DNA from: Escherichia phage BYEP01
Length of the DNA: 64,000 bases
Reading direction: 5' to 3' (one strand)
Sequence record: OR757453.1
Shown one piece after another: positions 5,847 through 35,868 of the stretch. A program made the position numbers and the translations under genes. The notes beneath the pieces were generated by a model. That model ran no database searches and was not told where the DNA came from. It saw only the letters and a list, made by a program, of their open reading frames with translations. Positions within the stretch are counted from its first letter, which is position 1; each line of letters begins with the position of its first letter.

Positions 5847-5952
5847 TTCTATTATCTTCCATTCTTTTCTGTTGTTTGTTCTAATTGGAATTGAATGGAA
5901 GGGACTTAGACCCATTATACCACCAACATTTATAAAGCATTATGAGGAATAT

Positions 5953-24497: not shown

Positions 24498-25277
24498 ATG
24501 AATTATACTAAAGTATATAATAATTTAATTAAGAAAGGAAAACTCAGAAAATTAGATAAATCTAAATTAAATTTTTATACGGAAAAGCATCATATTATTC
24601 CATCTTGTATTGGTGGTAATGATGATTCTGATAATTTAGTTTTATTAACAGCTAGAGAGCATTTTATAGCCCATTGGCTTTTAGCTAAAATTCATTATAA
24701 TTCGCCTGGATTAATTTATGCATGGTGGTCATTTTATAATTTTGGAGAAGATTCTTTAGGAAGAAATCTCAAATTAACTTCAAGAGGATATCAGTTAGTT
24801 AGAGAAAAATTTTCAAAAATACATTCTAATACAATGAAAGAAATGTGGAAGTCTAATGAATACAGAGAAAAACGTTCGATAACATTAAGTCTTCCTGAAA
24901 TAAGGGCTAAAATTTCAGAATCCCAGTTAGAAGCACAAAACAAACCGGAAGTTAAAGAAAAAATATCTAAAGGGGTGAAAGCTGCTTTTAAACGACCGGG
25001 AGTTAAAGAAAAACACTCTGCTGCAGTCAAAAAATCTTTGAATAATTTTGAAACTAAAAAGAAACAATCAAATTCATCTAAAATTAGACAAAGAACTGGT
25101 AAACATTGGCAAGACTATGACTTACTTTATAAGTTATGGATTAAATTAAATAGACCTAAACGTGGGTCATTCGGAACTTATATAAGTAAATTAGGATATC
25201 CAAAATCTAATTATCATCGATTGATTGTACAATTTAATGAAGATTATGAAAGGTCTAATAATGAAAACTGTAGTTAA
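24498..25277 (+). CDS. HNH homing endonuclease (MobD-like) with NUMOD repeats
   Basis: EKHHIIPSCIGGNDDSDNLVLLTAREHFIAHW; repeated KPEVKEKISKG / RPGVKEKHSAA. Confidence 0.8.
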   Translation: MNYTKVYNNLIKKGKLRKLDKSKLNFYTEKHHIIPSCIGGNDDSDNLVLLTAREHFIAHWLLAKIHYNSPGLIYAWWSFYNFGEDSLGRNLKLTSRGYQLVREKFSKIHSNTMKEMWKSNEYREKRSITLSLPEIRAKISESQLEAQNKPEVKEKISKGVKAAFKRPGVKEKHSAAVKKSLNNFETKKKQSNSSKIRQRTGKHWQDYDLLYKLWIKLNRPKRGSFGTYISKLGYPKSNYHRLIVQFNEDYERSNNENCS

Positions 25278-26271
25278 GTCTTATTTTGGTAGTCATCTTT
25301 ATGGAACTTCTACTCCAGAATCTGATGTAGATTTTAAAGAAATCTTTGTTCCTCCTGCTCGTGATATTCTTATTGGAAATGTTAAAGAGCATATGAGCAA
25401 AAACACTAACAACACATCATCTAAAAACACTAAAGATGATATTGACCATGAACTATACAGTCTTAAGTATTTCTTTAAATTAGCAGCAGATGGTGAAACC
25501 GTAGCATTGGATATGCTCCACACTCCACCTGAACTAGTAGTTAAATCTGATTTGCCTGATGTATGGAAATTTATCCAAGACAATCGTTCACGGTTTTATA
25601 CAACTAGCATGAAAGCCTATTTAGGATATGTCCGCAAGCAAGCTTCTAAATACGGTGTCAAGGGTTCTCGTTTGGCCGCATTGCGTGATGTATTGAAAGT
25701 AGTTAATCAAATCCCTGAGCAATGGGTTGATTACCAAGAAGATGGTTCTATTAAGCAACGTCGCACTAAAGTTGAAGATATTAAGCATCGTCTTCCAGAG
25801 AACGAATTCTGCGAATGGGTATTCCATAATCATGAGAAAACAGGCCCGCAAACGTTTTACACTGTGTTGGGTCGTAAATATCAGACAACGCTTTCTCTTA
25901 TCGAGCTTAAGCAGTCACTGAACAAATTAGATGCTGAATACGGCGAACGCGCTCGTAAGGCTGAAGCGAATGAGGGCATTGACTGGAAAGCTTTGAGCCA
26001 TGCTTGCCGTGGTGGACTCCAACTATTGGAAATTTACAAAACTGGTGACTTAGTCTATCCACTTCAAGACGCTCCATTTATTCTCGACGTGAAGTTGGGT
26101 AAACATCCATTTAAAACTGTTCAAGAGTTTTTGGAAGATGTGGTCGATCAAGTAGAAGCAGCATCCATTGAAGCTTCTAAGAACGGTATGCAGCAAAAAG
26201 TAGACATGGGTTTCTGGGATGACTTCCTTGAGAGGGTTTATCTTGAAAACCACCGAAGTTATTATAAATGA
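25261..26271 (+). CDS. nucleotidyltransferase-fold protein (pol-beta superfamily NTase)
   Basis: N-terminal GSHLYGTSTPESDVDF (GS..x..[DE]x[DE]) NTase signature. Confidence 0.55.
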   Translation: MKTVVKSYFGSHLYGTSTPESDVDFKEIFVPPARDILIGNVKEHMSKNTNNTSSKNTKDDIDHELYSLKYFFKLAADGETVALDMLHTPPELVVKSDLPDVWKFIQDNRSRFYTTSMKAYLGYVRKQASKYGVKGSRLAALRDVLKVVNQIPEQWVDYQEDGSIKQRRTKVEDIKHRLPENEFCEWVFHNHEKTGPQTFYTVLGRKYQTTLSLIELKQSLNKLDAEYGERARKAEANEGIDWKALSHACRGGLQLLEIYKTGDLVYPLQDAPFILDVKLGKHPFKTVQEFLEDVVDQVEAASIEASKNGMQQKVDMGFWDDFLERVYLENHRSYYK

Positions 26272-26275
26272 TAGG

Positions 26276-26300
26276 GAGCCTTCGGGCTCCCTTTTTTATT
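26276..26300 (+). terminator. UUCG-loop terminator hairpin + T run
   Basis: gggagcc-ttcg-ggctccc-tttttt. Confidence 0.65.
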
Positions 26301-26333
26301 TCAAAATTTTTTCACAAAACTTTGGAGAATAAA

Positions 26334-27302
26334 ATGAAAACTGTAACTATCAATAAGGGTATCTACTTCGGTAAAGAAATATCTGGAACTTTTGAGCTCT
26401 TAGGCGAATGGTTCCCAGATAATGCTCCGGTAGATGCACAAGGAGATGGTAAAGTTTTTGTTGAAATTGACGGTAAACGTCGCGGTGTTTGGGTTTACAA
26501 ATCAGATATTTCATATGATGGTGTAAAAGTTGAAGAAGTTAAAGAATCATATGAAGATATGAAAACCCGCATTAATAAAAGATTTAATGTTATGGGAATG
26601 ATGACGAATGGTATTATTAATGGAAATATTCGTTCATTAATTATCTCTGGCGCAGCAGGTATTGGTAAAACGTATTCTTTAGATAAAGCTTTAAATAAAG
26701 CAAATGATAATGGATACATTGAATATAAAAGCATTAATGGTAAAATCTCTGGTATTGGTCTTTATGAACAGCTTTGGAATAATCGTGAAGAGAATTCTGT
26801 GCTTTTGATTGATGATGTGGATGTTTTCTCTGATATGGACATTCTTAATCTTCTGAAAGCTGCTCTGGACACTGGAGAGACCCGTAAAGTTTGCTGGAGC
26901 ACTGCATCTTCTTACTTAGAAGAAAAAGGCATTGACCGTGAGTTTGAATTTAAAGGAACGATTGTTTTTATCACAAACGTTGACATTGACCGCGAATTAG
27001 ACCGTGGTACTAAACTTGCTCCACATTTACAAGCATTAGTGTCCCGCTCAGTTTATTTGGATTTGGGTGTTCATACTAATGAAGAAATTATGGTCAGGGT
27101 TGAAGATGTTATTCTTTCAACTGACATGATGCAAAAGCGCGGTCTTTCTGATGAAGAAACTTATAAAGCATTATCATGGATGAAAGTCAATGTTAACCGT
27201 TTACGTAATGTTTCACTGCGTACTGCACTTTATCTTGCTGACTTTATTATGACCGACAAAAACGGTTGGCAAGAAATCGCTGAGGTTACTCTTCTGAAAT
27301 AA
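26334..27302 (+). CDS. AAA+ / P-loop ATPase (322 aa)
   Basis: Walker A GAAGIGKT, Walker B LLIDDVD; start at MKTV after terminator. Confidence 0.65.
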   Translation: MKTVTINKGIYFGKEISGTFELLGEWFPDNAPVDAQGDGKVFVEIDGKRRGVWVYKSDISYDGVKVEEVKESYEDMKTRINKRFNVMGMMTNGIINGNIRSLIISGAAGIGKTYSLDKALNKANDNGYIEYKSINGKISGIGLYEQLWNNREENSVLLIDDVDVFSDMDILNLLKAALDTGETRKVCWSTASSYLEEKGIDREFEFKGTIVFITNVDIDRELDRGTKLAPHLQALVSRSVYLDLGVHTNEEIMVRVEDVILSTDMMQKRGLSDEETYKALSWMKVNVNRLRNVSLRTALYLADFIMTDKNGWQEIAEVTLLK

Positions 27303-28351: not shown

Positions 28352-28759
28352 ATGAAACAGTTGATAATTAAAAGATTGAATTTATTGATATGTTGTTTAT
28401 GTATAGCAATTGCATACGGTTATTACGCAATTAATGATTATATGCATTATAAAGATTATGATGTTACTGTAGTTAATACCATTACAGGAACACAAGGAAA
28501 AGGGTCTAGTTTATCGTTTATTGCCGTATATGAACTCAAAGACGGTTATAGATTTAGTGAATATATTTCCCCAGAGATGTATTCTTCAATAGAAAAAGGT
28601 GATAATATTACTGTAAGTTTACGTCCTTTCGACGTAAAACAGACACTGTTTGATAATATTGTTTGGTTCTTTGGGATGGTATTAGTTCAATCCGTGTGTG
28701 GCGCTTATGTAGTCTGTTCAATCATATTCTGTGTATTTAGTAAAATTGAAAATGAGTGA
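28352..28759 (+). CDS. membrane protein (135 aa)
   Basis: N- and C-terminal hydrophobic helices. Confidence 0.5.
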   Translation: MKQLIIKRLNLLICCLCIAIAYGYYAINDYMHYKDYDVTVVNTITGTQGKGSSLSFIAVYELKDGYRFSEYISPEMYSSIEKGDNITVSLRPFDVKQTLFDNIVWFFGMVLVQSVCGAYVVCSIIFCVFSKIENE

Positions 28760-28766
28760 GGAAAAT

Positions 28767-29657
28767 ATGTCAGTAGTAATTAATAATGTCAATGCAGTAA
28801 TTAAATCATTAGTTAATAAAAAAATGATGAATGAATGGACTGTACTTCGTCGTGGAGAGCCAGATAAATTTTTTCATAGATTTAACCCAACTTTGGATTT
28901 GAATGTTATTGACAGAGATGTTCATGCCGAAATTTTAGATAAGTTTAAAGTTGATATTGGATTTGGATTAGAAAAACATTTACAGCGAACAAATGGGTCT
29001 GGAATGAGTTTATCTAATCGCATTATGAAAGCCCTTAATAAAATTGGAGCATTGTCTCGTATTAATGCGAGTGAAATCCTTCGTAATTACAATAAAGGAT
29101 ATGACCTTTATGGTCGACTAATGCCAAAATTATCATTCGACCAAATGATTGCAGATTTGTGGGAAAATCAACGACGATTATTAGCATTGGGCGCTCGATT
29201 AGCTAAAGGTCTAGATAAACAAATGATTTTTAAGACCAATAATACAGAAGACCTTAAATGCTTTAAATTCAGTATTCGCGGAGATGATTATTACATCAGA
29301 GCTCGCTCTACAGATTATGTTAATATGGGGCATCATCTCTGTTTAGCTTTTGAAGTTTTAAAAGAAGCTGGAACATTAGAATATTCATCTGGTGCAAAAT
29401 GCCCTATTGGTTCAAGCTGTATTTTAATTTATCGCCCGAATGAATCCAGTTCAACTACATTGCCTACAAAACCTGTACTAGTTCGTAGTAACGAAAAACA
29501 TTCTGAACAAATTGATTATTTTAATAAACAGATTGAAGAGCTGAATATTTCTATTCAACAATATGACGATGAAATTTTCAGACTATCTGGATTGAGTAGT
29601 AAAGCTAAATCTGAACGTGAAAAGTTAATTAAAATTGTTGATTTACTTAAATCTTAA
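28767..29657 (+). CDS. hypothetical protein, tandem paralog 1 of 4 (C-terminal coiled coil)
   Basis: SD GAGG; shares central helix pattern and C-terminal coiled coil with next three genes. Confidence 0.6.
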   Translation: MSVVINNVNAVIKSLVNKKMMNEWTVLRRGEPDKFFHRFNPTLDLNVIDRDVHAEILDKFKVDIGFGLEKHLQRTNGSGMSLSNRIMKALNKIGALSRINASEILRNYNKGYDLYGRLMPKLSFDQMIADLWENQRRLLALGARLAKGLDKQMIFKTNNTEDLKCFKFSIRGDDYYIRARSTDYVNMGHHLCLAFEVLKEAGTLEYSSGAKCPIGSSCILIYRPNESSSTTLPTKPVLVRSNEKHSEQIDYFNKQIEELNISIQQYDDEIFRLSGLSSKAKSEREKLIKIVDLLKS

Positions 29658-29665
29658 GGAACACC

Positions 29666-30679
29666 ATGAAAACTCGTTCTCAAATTGAAGATATGGTTCG
29701 TAATGCCAGTTATACTCGTGATGTTATGACATTTTTGTGCGAAAATAATTTAGACCCTGATAAAGTTAATCGTGATATTCACTTTAAATATATGAATAGC
29801 AGTGAATGGGTGCGTCATTTTAGTAAAGCGGGGTATATTACACAAATGACTGCTCGTGAGCAACTCACCGATTTCTGTAAAACTATTGATTATAAAAATC
29901 CTCTATTTGTTCAAGGCGTTGGTCAAAGTAAGGTCGATTTATCATCTGGATTTTTCAATCCAAATCATTATCGTATTGAATGGAGATTTATTGCTCTATT
30001 CCGTAAACAATTAAAGCAAATTTTGTCGACGGCTAGTCGATTAAAAGGTTCTGACATTAACTTAAAGAACCTGAAATTTGATGGTTATACTCTTCAGATG
30101 GAAGTAAGACCATTAAAAGAAAATAATAGAACTGCACGAATTAGCTTTAAACCTAATACAAAAAATTCTCTTTCAATTTGCGAATGCCTTAAATCGCAGT
30201 TGACAGAAGCATTTAAGTATATGGATGTTGTTGCCGCTGTTCAGTCTAAGATTTTACCTCGTTTATTAGACACAACAACATATGAACTTGATATGATCGT
30301 TTCATTTAAATACGATTTTTTGAGAAAGGATGAAGTCGCGCAAGAGAAAAAGCAAGAAGTGCAAGATAACTTAAATTTAAATTTATCCAATTACTCATCA
30401 AACGATCCTAAATTTTGGATGTATAGTTCAGGTAATAAGGATGCATGGAAATTCAATAAAGTGAATTTTCTTCCTGTTGAAAATCCGAGTCTTAAACCTG
30501 TTGAAAAATGGCATGCAGATGCGATTGAGAATTCTCTTAAAGCAGTAGATGATGAACTGGTTAAAGCAACTAATGAAGTGTTAGAAGTTGAAAAGATGCT
30601 AGAAAAAGCTCAAGAAAAAGTCAAAAATCTTACGAAGCAACGTTCTAAACTGAACAATGCACTAAATGCACTAAACTAG
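29666..30679 (+). CDS. hypothetical protein, tandem paralog 2 of 4
   Basis: 337 aa; C-terminal coiled coil. Confidence 0.6.
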   Translation: MKTRSQIEDMVRNASYTRDVMTFLCENNLDPDKVNRDIHFKYMNSSEWVRHFSKAGYITQMTAREQLTDFCKTIDYKNPLFVQGVGQSKVDLSSGFFNPNHYRIEWRFIALFRKQLKQILSTASRLKGSDINLKNLKFDGYTLQMEVRPLKENNRTARISFKPNTKNSLSICECLKSQLTEAFKYMDVVAAVQSKILPRLLDTTTYELDMIVSFKYDFLRKDEVAQEKKQEVQDNLNLNLSNYSSNDPKFWMYSSGNKDAWKFNKVNFLPVENPSLKPVEKWHADAIENSLKAVDDELVKATNEVLEVEKMLEKAQEKVKNLTKQRSKLNNALNALN

Positions 30680-30708
30680 TTTACTTTGCCACAAGGATGT
30701 GGTATAAT
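30679..30708 (+). promoter_or_regulatory. early promoter
   Basis: gtttac..tgtggtataat; spacer contains ccaca-agga-tgtgg palindrome. Confidence 0.55.
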
Positions 30709-30736
30709 GTTCTTACTTTCTACTGAGGAGATTAAT

Positions 30737-31738
30737 ATGACTCGTAACGAATATATCAAATCATTCAATAGTGTTATTGATGATAAAGTTAAACCTAAGT
30801 CTAGTCAGAATAGTGTTCTTTCCATTATCAATCAATGGCTCAATAATATTGATGTAAGCATTGTTTCTTCCGGCAAATTTATCCATGAAGTTCATAAAAT
30901 TTCTAGTCGCGAAGATAAAGATGATATTAAGGAAACCTTTAAAGGTTCTCGTCTTCTTTCATATTTAGTTAATCAGGATATTCTTGGTAAATTTGGGAAA
31001 GAAATTAAACGAACTAAAGATGTAGTAGGATATAATTGGTTCGGTGATGTTAATTCTTATCATCTTAACATTAAAGAAGACCCTGAGAATATTTTTACTC
31101 GTCGTTGGATTAGTAATTTCAGACTTTTCAAAAAGCAAATTCTAAAATCAGCTTCTAAATTATGCTATGGCGGTTATCGTCAAATTCATCCTTGGGCTTC
31201 TGATATGATTATCATAAAAGAATATGAACTTGATAAAAATAAAGCAGCTATTTTTGTGAATTATGGATTTTTTACACCAGAAGCTAATCAAAAGAACATT
31301 AATAAATTTTTCTCAATTGCTAGTGATATAACTTGGCAATTAGAGACTGCATTACTTTGTATGGAAACGGTAGAAAATATTCATACTTATCCTTTTAAAA
31401 ATACGTGCGGTTGGGAAGGATACAAAATTGTAGTTAGTCTTCGTGAAGTAAAATGCGCGTACTCACCGACTAATAAAGAAATTTATCAACAAAAATGTGA
31501 GGAAATTGTGAATACTCCTAAAGAAGAAACTACCCTTGAGGAACTAATGGATAATCTTGATGATTCACCTGAATCGGTAGAAATTCGTCCAGAAGTTATT
31601 GCACTAGAAAAAGCTTATAAAGAAGTTCTAGAAATTTCTAATAAAGCGCAGAAAGAATATGAGAAGGCTAAAAGGATTTGGGAAGAATCTGTTAATCGCC
31701 TTGATCGTTTGGAACAAGCTTTACAGTTAATTAAGTAA
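30737..31738 (+). CDS. hypothetical protein, tandem paralog 3 of 4
   Basis: Start at MTRNEY after promoter, SD GAGGAG. Confidence 0.6.
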   Translation: MTRNEYIKSFNSVIDDKVKPKSSQNSVLSIINQWLNNIDVSIVSSGKFIHEVHKISSREDKDDIKETFKGSRLLSYLVNQDILGKFGKEIKRTKDVVGYNWFGDVNSYHLNIKEDPENIFTRRWISNFRLFKKQILKSASKLCYGGYRQIHPWASDMIIIKEYELDKNKAAIFVNYGFFTPEANQKNINKFFSIASDITWQLETALLCMETVENIHTYPFKNTCGWEGYKIVVSLREVKCAYSPTNKEIYQQKCEEIVNTPKEETTLEELMDNLDDSPESVEIRPEVIALEKAYKEVLEISNKAQKEYEKAKRIWEESVNRLDRLEQALQLIK

Positions 31739-31790
31739 TTTAAAGCCAAGGATGGCTCGGAGTATAAATCATTAACAAAGTGAGAAGAAC

Positions 31791-32720
31791 ATGAAAACTC
31801 GTAAACATTATATTGATTATTTTGACAGTCTTATTACTAAACATCGTAATTATCAGATAGGACACAGGGCAGTAATCAATAATATTCTTCGTGATTTCCT
31901 TCAATATGTTGGCCAGGAAAATCATATCTGTAAAGATACTCAAAACGCTTATTCTCATTCGTTAGGCAATTTGCTTCAATGGTTTAAACGTTCTCGTCTG
32001 TTATCTTCTACTGTAGCTAGTGATAACATTAAAAACTTTATGAAGCCGAGCTTCATTAAATCTGAGACATCTATAACCGATTTGGTTGAATTTACTATTG
32101 TTAACGATGTTAAAAAGACCCATTTGGCTGATTGGTTATCTACCATTCCCGAAACTAAATTTGCTGATAAATTCGCTTGTCAATTCAATGACCAAGTGAA
32201 TATGCTTTTTAAGCATGCTCGTAAACTATTTACCGCGGGCGATGACCGTACAAATACAGTTCATGTTAAGGATTGGGTTATTGCTGATGAAGTAACACAC
32301 AAGCCAGGTGGTTCATCAGTATTAATTAATATCCAGGTTCCTTATTATTACTCACGTAATCTCGGCACCATGACAGCTAGAGAAATTAATAAGCACAACA
32401 AAATTATTCGTTCGTTGTCTTATAAACTCTGCACGATGGTGGAGATGATGGACGTAGTAGAAATGTATGACGAAACCGAAGATAATGGTTCAATGCTGTA
32501 CAGTTCACGCATTCTAATTAAACTGAAGAACCCTAATACATATAAGACAGTTGTAAAAGAGCCTAAAGTAGAAAAGATTGATAACTTGAGCGAAGAACGC
32601 GAATATCTCAATGCTCGTTTGATTGAAGTTGAAGCCCAAATTGCAGAACACACCAAATTGTTAAAAGCTCTTAATGCAAAAGCAAATGGTTTACGTAATG
32701 CTATTGAGGTATTGAAATGA
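31791..32720 (+). CDS. hypothetical protein, tandem paralog 4 of 4
   Basis: 309 aa; C-terminal coiled coil. Confidence 0.6.
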   Translation: MKTRKHYIDYFDSLITKHRNYQIGHRAVINNILRDFLQYVGQENHICKDTQNAYSHSLGNLLQWFKRSRLLSSTVASDNIKNFMKPSFIKSETSITDLVEFTIVNDVKKTHLADWLSTIPETKFADKFACQFNDQVNMLFKHARKLFTAGDDRTNTVHVKDWVIADEVTHKPGGSSVLINIQVPYYYSRNLGTMTAREINKHNKIIRSLSYKLCTMVEMMDVVEMYDETEDNGSMLYSSRILIKLKNPNTYKTVVKEPKVEKIDNLSEEREYLNARLIEVEAQIAEHTKLLKALNAKANGLRNAIEVLK

Positions 32721-33031
32721 AAAAGCGTCTATTAGAAGACATTGCAGCTTCAAGTAATTCCAGTTTAATTAAAATTATTATGGCCGGTGAAGAAGACGAT
32801 CTGGAAATGCGTGGAAAGATTCATGGTTGTGATGATTATAGCAGCCCTATTAATTGGGATTCTGTAATGGTCATGGTTAAACGTCGCGAACGTGCTTCTA
32901 AAAACGTTCCTAATTGCCCTGAATGTGGAACTGAACAGGTGCAATTGGTCCATTGGCAGACTAATAATCTTCGTTATAAATGTCGCCATTGTAAACACCG
33001 ATTTGACCGAGAAGAAAATGACCAAGCGTAA
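32717..33031 (+). CDS. zinc-ribbon protein (104 aa)
   Basis: CPECG...CRHC. Confidence 0.5.
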
Positions 33032-33261: not shown

Positions 33262-33525
33262 ATGTTTAAAGTATATGGTTATGATAGCAACATCCATAAA
33301 TGCGTGTATTGTGATAATGCAAAACGTCTTTTGACCGTGAAGAAACAGCCATTTGAATTTATCAACATTATGCCGGAAAAAGGTGTTTTTGATGATGAGA
33401 AAATTGCTGAGCTTCTGACTAAACTAGGTCGTGATACTCAAATCGGCTTGACAATGCCTCAGGTATTTGCTCCTGATGGAAGTCATATTGGCGGCTTTGA
33501 CCAATTGCGGGAATACTTTAAATGA
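33262..33525 (+). CDS. nrdC: glutaredoxin/thioredoxin NrdC (87 aa)
   Basis: Active site CVYC; matches remembered T4 NrdC. Confidence 0.88.
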   Translation: MFKVYGYDSNIHKCVYCDNAKRLLTVKKQPFEFINIMPEKGVFDDEKIAELLTKLGRDTQIGLTMPQVFAPDGSHIGGFDQLREYFK

Positions 33526-33737
33526 TGCTCGAAGGAACTGATTATATCCATGACTACCGCGGAAGCGCGGTATATGTAGGTGATGAAGTTGCAGTTTACT
33601 ATGGATATGGAACTTTGATGACAGCCAAAGTTATTCAAATTAAAAATAACCGTGCTAAACTTGAAGTTTATTATTCTAATGGCGAAAAGTCTATTTCTAA
33701 GTGGAAATACGGCGATTGTATGGTCAAACTGGGGTAA
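33522..33737 (+). CDS. hypothetical protein (71 aa)
   Basis: ATGA overlap. Confidence 0.45.
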   Translation: MMLEGTDYIHDYRGSAVYVGDEVAVYYGYGTLMTAKVIQIKNNRAKLEVYYSNGEKSISKWKYGDCMVKLG

Positions 33738-33739
33738 AT

Positions 33740-33910
33740 ATGATTTACGATATTAGTGTAGCAAGAACTCCATCAATGGTTACTATTCCAGCTGAAGAAT
33801 TAGATCGTCTTCATAAAATTGAAGAACTTCTTTGGGAAATTGAATCTGATTTGCCATCAGGACTAGAATCCTGGATTGATTATGAAGAACTTAATAAGCT
33901 TCGGGGTTAA
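33740..33910 (+). CDS. hypothetical protein (56 aa)
   Basis: Internal start of ORF 33701. Confidence 0.4.
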   Translation: MIYDISVARTPSMVTIPAEELDRLHKIEELLWEIESDLPSGLESWIDYEELNKLRG

Positions 33911-35001: not shown

Positions 35002-35529
35002 CGATTGAAAAAGAAATTGAAGGATTAATTCATAAAACTAATAAAGACCTTTTAAACGAGAATGCTAATAAAGATTCTCGTGTTTTTCCAACTCAACGGG
35101 ACCTTATGGCTGGTATTGTGTCTAAACATATTGCCAAAAATATGGTCCCGTCTTTTATTATGAAAGCGCATGAAAGCGGAATTATTCACGTGCACGATAT
35201 TGATTATTCCCCTGCTCTTCCATTTACTAATTGCTGTTTAGTAGATTTAAAAGGAATGCTTGAGAATGGATTTAAGCTCGGTAATGCACAGATTGAAACT
35301 CCTAAATCAATCGGTGTTGCTACTGCAATTATGGCACAAATTACTGCGCAGGTTGCTTCTCATCAATATGGCGGAACGACTTTTGCGAATGTAGATAAAG
35401 TACTTTCTCCTTATGTTAAACGCACCTATGCAAAACATATTGAGGACGCAGAAAAATGGCAAATCGCTGACGCGTTGAATTATGCCCAATCTAAAACAGA
35501 AAAAGACGTATACGATGCATTCCAAGCTT
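34998..35529 (+). CDS. nrdD: anaerobic ribonucleotide reductase NrdD, exon 1 (3-prime junction approximate)
   Basis: N-terminal region of class III RNR; ORF ends at stop 35541-35543 inside intron-like sequence. Confidence 0.7.
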
Positions 35530-35868
35530 ATGAGTTAATTTAATTCAGGCTCATGTAAAACCGGTCTAAACGGGGAACCTCTCTAGTAGACAATCCCGTG
35601 CTAAATGTTCTTTTGAACTAAATGCCTAACGACTAACCGTGATGAATGTAGCGGTGTAGAATAGAAGCTAATGCTATTCGAAACGGCCGGCATCGAAAGA
35701 TGAAGATATAGTCTAATCTGCATGGCGACATGCAGCAGTCATCTTGTATAAATAAGATTATCTTATGAATACGAGGTGAAACAATGAAATGGATAAAAGA
35801 CGTTGCATATCTATGGACTATCCAAATTTTGTTGTTTCATATAAACGGGCATGAATTTGCGTCTCATG
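35530..35868 (+). mobile_element. group I intron in nrdD without endonuclease ORF (boundaries +/- 20 nt)
   Basis: Same-frame exons separated by stop-rich ~340 nt with group I S-element aagatatagtct, P9 hairpin ctgcatggcgacatgcag and internal TATAAATA. Confidence 0.6.

Follow-up and report, generated by a model that had tools for sequence, protein, structure and literature searches.

Four consecutive genes in Escherichia phage BYEP01, at positions 28767-32720 of the 64,000-nucleotide stretch of sequence record OR757453.1 that we analysed (the window), encode members of one homologous superfamily, for which we propose the name NrdC.3-.6. The window comes from a Tequatrovirus (T4-like phage), its plus strand is the complement of the T4 map, and in a database comparison the region 28700-32800 is 95-96% identical to many T4-like phages of Escherichia, Shigella and Salmonella. 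All four genes lie in consecutive order on the plus strand. Gene A (28767-29657, 296 amino acids (aa)) is the ortholog of T4 nrdC.6, as identified from its open reading frame (ORF) and ribosome-binding site, the T4 annotation and PHROG 2257; gene B (29666-30679, 337 aa) is the ortholog of nrdC.5, based on Pfam DUF7235 and its identity to T4 NrdC.5; gene C (30737-31738, 333 aa) is the ortholog of nrdC.4 by its match to PHROG 1435; and gene D (31791-32720, 309 aa), also in PHROG 1435, is the ortholog of nrdC.3 in the form of a divergent allele. An initial annotation of this stretch had the lengths and starts of all four right, with each gene beginning at an ATG behind a GAGG-type ribosome-binding site. 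The reading that we favour, and consider somewhat better than evenly likely, is that these genes are ancient tandem duplicates belonging to a family that, so far as its members can be traced, occurs only in T4-like phages, and whose products would bind and neutralise host immune proteins without acting as enzymes.

Homology of the four proteins

When the four proteins were compared by BLASTP, only C and D were significantly similar (E 2.5e-7, 25% identity over 226 residues), the A-D and B-C pairs were marginal, A and B gave no match at all, and pairwise identity between paralogs was below 25%. The initial annotation had described the similarity as low but recognisable, which was generous at this pairwise level and holds once profiles and structures are compared. 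Using family profiles built from database homologs and five other T4-like loci, single-family comparisons with hhalign gave 98% (E 3e-14) for C-D and 45% for B-C, and left A weak (E 0.005-0.07), while a merged C+D profile aligned to B at 93% (E 2.9e-7). An exhaustive search of 1.84 billion cluster representatives with a superfamily-profile hidden Markov model (HMM) returned only 28 of them, and several of these bridge the families by scoring with two or three independent single-family HMMs. For example, the Klebsiella phage F48 protein P0242 is recognised by the B HMM (1.4e-11) and the C+D HMM (7e-12), P0233 by the A HMM (5e-16) and the B HMM (3e-8), and P0239 by the A, B and C+D HMMs. With the profiles enlarged by these bridging sequences, hhalign aligned A to B at 96.2% (E 2.5e-9, 206 columns), A to CD at 93.4% (E 2.4e-7, aligned columns 86-160) and B to CD at 95.6% (E 1.3e-8, aligned columns 77-265), and the enlarged profiles reached 97-99% against the intermediate sequences; reversed-sequence controls gave E values of at least 0.04. 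The all-versus-all and HMM comparison proposed in the initial annotation has therefore returned a significant relationship among all four proteins. These significant alignments fall mainly in the globular part, outside the coiled coil. Even the weak pairwise profile alignments all placed two motifs in a single register, namely a G-x-L-S...IL..F.K stretch and the central helix, and a plain MAFFT alignment of 25 sequences from all four families aligned both motifs, together with a third helix and a C-terminal L..AL.LLK.

Independent evidence came from AlphaFold models of A and C (pLDDT 77.8 and 84, respectively), each generated from a single-family alignment. The order of elements is identical in the two models: the chain starts with N-terminal helices and a helix pair (motif 1), continues through a helix-helix-short-helix unit (motif 2) and then a long helix between two beta-hairpins, and ends, after a low-confidence linker, in a long C-terminal helix. 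Foldseek searches against viral models gave 19 significant matches for the C model and nine for the A model, and every named match is a protein from a T4-like phage with a length of 155-378 aa (mostly 280-375 aa). The C model matches JS10 NrdC.6, a member of A's family (E 5e-5), and six more matches are common to both models (PM2, IME523, Acj61, Acj9, Mineola and fHe-Yen9-01). Because the models were built from single-family alignments, these cross-family matches do not arise by construction; the arbitrary placement of the long terminal helix keeps the TM-scores modest. In the predicted common fold, a variable helical N-terminus precedes the two motifs and an alpha/beta sandwich, and a variable linker connects these to a C-terminal heptad helix. 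Profile and structure comparisons together place A, B, C and D in one superfamily.

The shared elements can be located in each plus-strand gene. Motif 1 is NKIGALSRINASEILRNYNK in A (29037-29096), with equivalents at 29822-29881 in B, 30941-31000 in C and 31986-32045 in D, all positioned by the pairwise profile alignments and plain MAFFT. Motif 2, the central helix that the initial annotation had picked out, is present in all four proteins in the profile and MAFFT alignments, as LWENQRRLLALGARLAKG in A (29157-29210, where W replaces F), LFRKQLKQILSTASRLKG in B (29996-30049), NFRLFKKQILKSASKLCYG in C (31115-31171) and QFNDQVNMLFKHARKLFTAG in D (32181-32240). It holds the sole basic residue (R/K) conserved across the superfamily and corresponds to the helix-helix unit in the models (H119-142 in C and H124-145 in A). 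The third conserved helix (L..AL..M..V) lies in the predicted alpha/beta sandwich of C (31319-31372), as part of model helix H185-208 with beta-hairpins on either side, and aligns with 29325-29372 in A, 30179-30232 in B and 32406-32459 in D. The long C-terminal helix of C (31589-31735; residues 285-332 of the model), which has a heptad pattern and ends in the shared L..AL.LLK tail, has equivalents at 29502-29654 in A (model residues 243-295), 30509-30676 in B and 32586-32717 in D, with the tail aligning across families. The best heptad window coincides with this helix in all four proteins, at z = 2.0-3.2 relative to shuffles. For the C-terminal coiled coil of the initial annotation, the long helix is predicted in the A and C models, and the heptad peak is in the right place in all four proteins at scores that are only modest.

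Existing databases keep the four apart. B matches Pfam PF23882 (DUF7235) with 397.8 bits over residues 1-337 (gathering score 30 bits), and A, C and D, which are related to B at the superfamily level only, have no match to the DUF7235 model. In PHROG, C (4.9e-163) and D (7.9e-116) belong to phrog_1435, A to phrog_2257 and B to phrog_2351, and the precomputed Pfam labels of relatives assign A's family to PF26899 and C's to PF26897. Profile scans of A, C and D in Pfam, NCBIfam, PADLOC and the PDB produced only coiled-coil or designed-repeat noise, and no match to a known housekeeping family, which the initial annotation had allowed for, was found in these collections. We also set aside two kinds of GenBank label: 'thioredoxin' on nrdC.3-.6 orthologs is propagated from the gene name nrdC without domain support, and 'Mur ligase domain-containing protein' and 'cell wall hydrolase' are unsupported by domain searches and appear to be propagated names.

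Copy number, divergence and probable allele exchange

Family members that are named or structurally matched all come from T4-like phages, where the family occupies a single syntenic slot with one to four copies depending on the genus. Tequatrovirus has four copies, Mosigvirus (.6,.5 and.3) and Gaprivervirus (.6,.5 and.4) have three, and a single copy is present in each of Marfavirus, Kanagawavirus and Jiaodavirus; no further members occur in the 64-kb window. A is the most divergent of the paralogs. In a neighbour-joining tree each of A, B, C and D has a clade of its own. Because every clade has orthologs in other genera (Mosigvirus, Gaprivervirus), the duplications predate the splits of those genera, and the old duplication with diversification suggested in the initial annotation agrees with these clades and with divergence faster than that of the flanking genes.

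In all nine loci compared (seven genera), nrdC.2 directly follows the last family member, irrespective of which paralog that is, with an overlap of 1-4 nucleotides (nt) in eight of them and a 20-nt gap in KP179. Within the window, nrdC.2 (32717-33031, plus strand, 104 aa) encodes a zinc-ribbon protein, with zinc-ribbon Pfam matches that score below their cut-offs, and its start codon and the stop codon of D overlap in ATGA. This constant adjacency suggests an ancestral pair of one family gene and nrdC.2, with the array growing upstream. The arrangement of the two reading frames also suggests translational coupling between the last family member and nrdC.2, and possibly a functional partnership.

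Identity to T4 is 98-100% in the flanks of the array, 93% (tblastn) to 95% (global alignment) in B, 89% in C and 60% in D; relative to Mosigvirus and Gaprivervirus it is 67-92% in the flanks and 25-51% in the paralogs, where these are not missing altogether. The non-synonymous divergence (dN) of the paralogs is 3-10 times that of the flanks, with gene-wide ratios of non-synonymous to synonymous divergence (dN/dS) of 0.11-0.30. Among close relatives, variation is mostly found in the N-terminal ~60 residues and the linker, and the core is nearly invariant. D has 60% identity to T4 NrdC.3 and 76% to the Mosigvirus allele, with which it clusters in the neighbour-joining tree though the flanking genes are 95-100% identical to T4. 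As its dS relative to T4 is about 1.0 and it groups with the Mosigvirus allele, D is best explained as an allele replacement instead of divergence in place. There appear to be at least three allele classes of nrdC.3, which points to exchange of alleles between genera.

Several individual copies are altered in other ways. In Shigella phage SP18 (6956-7860 of locus L004), an nrdC.5-like copy is broken into two ORFs of 170 and 106 aa and is an apparent pseudogene. A 299-aa chimera on a metagenomic contig (P0162) has NrdC.5 residues 145-269 fused to NrdC.3 beginning near residue 135, which corresponds to the loss of nrdC.4 through recombination at a short stretch of similarity (FNKVN / FNDQVN) that is out of homologous register. 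The T4 reference AF158101 (about 5875-5885) has a 1-nt deletion in nrdC.6 relative to window positions 29540-29560 (ctg-atatt for ctgaatatt), and the resulting frameshift leaves a 275-aa product that has lost the C-terminal helix, which is still intact in the +1 frame; this is either a lesion of the laboratory strain or a sequencing error.

The B-C spacer contains a T4-type early promoter (30680-30708, plus strand) consisting of GTTTAC, a 17-nt spacer and TGgTATAAT, followed by a GAGGAG ribosome-binding site and the ATG of C, and its consensus match makes it the putative early promoter of C. Promoter and terminator scans overall gave no enrichment over shuffles and this early promoter alone was retained; an Rfam scan of the four-gene array found no RNA elements. 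Fast divergence, replacement of the D allele, varying copy number, the pseudogene and fusion copies and an early promoter before C make up what we regard as the signature of an arms race, in favour of the immune-neutralising reading.

Proposed anti-defence function and its alternatives

Functional data are available for one member of the superfamily. A T4 clone with compensatory deletions does not plate on ECOR17 or on MG1655 carrying ECOR17 dsr1 (PMC9391042), and expression of T4 nrdC.5, described in that study as an early gene, restores plating of this clone on Dsr1-bearing cells (Srikant, Guegler and Laub, eLife 2022, PMC9391042). B is the direct ortholog of this DUF7235 protein, with 92.8% identity over 333 aa and the same slot between nrdC.6 and nrdC.4, and as a 93%-identical, syntenic ortholog its anti-defence role is supported. 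A, C and D, which share its architecture, are more distant paralogs filed in other Pfam and PHROG families. The protein with demonstrated anti-Dsr1 activity is the one from T4, and we infer a comparable role for A, C and D from their relationship to it. The suspicion of anti-defence activity in the initial annotation has thus found support for B, for which the T4 study also supplies the function that the annotation felt unable to assign, and for A, C and D it is still a deduction.

The surroundings of the array have a similar character. In T6, OLD is inhibited by Gp49.2, whose gene lies just downstream of nrdC (PMC13096335), and Pin, a Lon inhibitor, is encoded near the array, so that the region acts as an anti-defence island. 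Loss of nrdC.1-6 from T4 as a block is possible (PMC9825161). The T-even dmd-tifA-adfA anti-toxin-antitoxin island, the anti-OLD protein gp49.2 and the internal proteins IPI-IPIII are likewise early or injected, non-essential and fast-evolving, and T-even anti-defence islands and expanded accessory families likewise sit together in hyperplastic regions, where selection leads to their loss or amplification. Unlike T-even islands made of unrelated small inhibitors, this array has one family four times over, with large products (about 300 aa) that have a C-terminal heptad helix in common.

Under the immune-neutralising reading, the four genes would be early-expressed, accessory and dispensable in laboratory hosts. 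NrdC.5, the T4 ortholog of B, would block Dsr1, a sirtuin that depletes nicotinamide adenine dinucleotide (NAD), probably by direct binding, as DSAD1 does on DSR2, and A, C and D would be diversified copies acting against other defence proteins or other Dsr1 variants. DSAD1 is reported to be a phage protein that inhibits the defence sirtuin DSR2 by binding (PMC10981675, PMC11087589). The likeness is a functional analogy between phage accessory proteins that neutralise a SIR2-type, NAD-depleting defence protein, and a comparison of the family with DSAD1 gave neither sequence nor structural similarity. The C-terminal heptad helix would probably mediate dimerisation or another oligomeric contact, and host range would be adjusted by changes in copy number (from one to four), by allele swapping and by deletions. 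Both the binding mechanism and the oligomerisation are inferred features of this model. Positions conserved across the superfamily are nearly all hydrophobic, the others being one R/K, a polar Ser position, a Gly, an N-terminal T-R and a C-terminal Lys. Because no catalytic constellation is present among these positions and no enzyme family was matched in Pfam, NCBIfam or the PDB, we consider the family to be non-enzymatic.

Several points weigh against this reading. The Dsr1 study cloned nrdC.5 as the sole paralog, and in T4 only (PMC9391042), and NrdC.5 could act on Dsr1 indirectly, for example by hiding its trigger. T4 nrdC.6 may be dispensable or inactive in T4, given that it is frameshifted before the C-terminal helix. 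Since gene-wide dN/dS is below 1, the rapid divergence does not demonstrate positive selection. The membership of B comes from profile comparisons and bridging sequences, with the structure models covering A and C, and the coiled-coil call comes from a simple heptad score (z of 2-3) and a monomer model.

The strongest competing explanation, which we rate as possible and clearly less probable, is that only nrdC.5 is an anti-defence gene, and that A, C and D have turned to unrelated host-takeover or regulatory roles (for example in modulating host proteases, transcription or phage-phage exclusion) or are decaying. It draws on the literature, where functional reports concern nrdC.5 and none deal with A, C or D, as well as on paralog identities below 25%, the frameshifted T4 nrdC.6, the split B-like copy of SP18 and the deletion of nrdC.4 in the metagenomic contig. 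Against decay, hundreds of Tequatrovirus genomes carry all four genes intact and with a conserved core, and the dN/dS of 0.11-0.30 indicates purifying selection, while the common architecture and common hot spots of variation suggest a single mode of action for all four.

We find it unlikely that the family consists of mimics or relatives of tail terminator or tail completion proteins, serving either as minor structural or assembly proteins or as decoys for sensors. The resemblance to such proteins (lambda gpU, SPP1 gp17-like, DUF3168) is sub-threshold for fold significance, is confined to a single subdomain and does not recur with the A model, and a further difference is that the array genes are early and dispensable. 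In the decoy version, to which we give an equally small chance, the alpha/beta sandwich would mimic the fold of tail terminator or tail completion proteins, which sensors such as the DSR-type sirtuins recognise, with each paralog or allele occupying a sensor of its own before any genuine structural protein is present, and the C-terminal helix, possibly with NrdC.2, would be the common oligomerisation or docking module.

That the four genes are not homologous, and resemble each other through helical or coiled-coil composition and chance motifs, is a very improbable and effectively refuted explanation. The empty A-B BLASTP comparison, the marginal scores of most other pairs, the weak single-family hhalign results for A and the separate Pfam and PHROG families would fit it, but the significant alignments lie in the globular part, reversed controls fail, bridging sequences exist, Foldseek connects each independent model to the other's family, and both motifs line up in plain MAFFT. 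A role as redox or nucleotide-metabolism accessory proteins, prompted by the 'thioredoxin' labels of many GenBank records and by the adjoining nrdC, nrdD and nrdG genes, can hardly be credited, as the proteins have no thioredoxin or glutaredoxin Pfam match, no conserved cysteine pair and a predicted fold that is not thioredoxin-like.

Neighbouring genes and significance of the array

Upstream of the array are nrdC.11, which encodes an RlaP-type nucleotidyltransferase, nrdC.10, which encodes an AAA/STAND-like nucleoside triphosphatase (NTPase), and nrdC.9 to nrdC.7; downstream are nrdC.2, nrdC.1 and the genes for glutaredoxin NrdC, Pin and endonuclease VII. In the interval 25261-27302, the match of nrdC.11 is to the RlaP nucleotidyltransferase family of the RNA repair pathway, a strong hairpin terminator (26273-26292) comes after this gene, and nrdC.10 gives weak matches to AAA/STAND-type NTPases; both genes could be further accessory or counter-defence functions. 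In the C-D spacer, just upstream of nrdC.3, the sequence TATAAATC (31763-31770) matches the T4 late promoter consensus TATAAATA at seven of eight positions. Between nrdC and gp49.1 (33522-33910) are two small ORFs of 71 and 69 aa, one of which is a DUF7205 protein, and no counterparts of T4 gp49.3 or of T4 gp49.2, the ortholog of the reported OLD inhibitor of T6, were found anywhere in the 64-kb window. The nrdD gene contains a group I intron (35500-35735; Rfam RF00028, 72 bits) which, at a length of only ~240 nt, has no room for a homing-endonuclease ORF, in contrast to the T4 nrdD intron with its annotated I-TevII gene inside.

In the literature under the nrdC.x names, functional data are given for nrdC.5 only, and the four-way paralogy is stated nowhere in the accessible papers. 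What is new is the unification of the four genes and the prediction that results from it, as B was already known with a phenotype, and A, C and D as ORFs. The value of this result is as a lead for experiments and less as a surprise. The separate Pfam families PF26899, PF23882 and PF26897 are suggested to belong together. Three of these genes lack an assigned function even in T4, the most thoroughly studied of phages, and their paralogy with nrdC.5 makes A, C and D candidates for inhibiting either further Dsr1 variants or different bacterial defence systems. With a copy number that ranges from one to four among the genera, the array may provide a natural system for following how counter-defence diversifies by duplication, allele exchange and loss.

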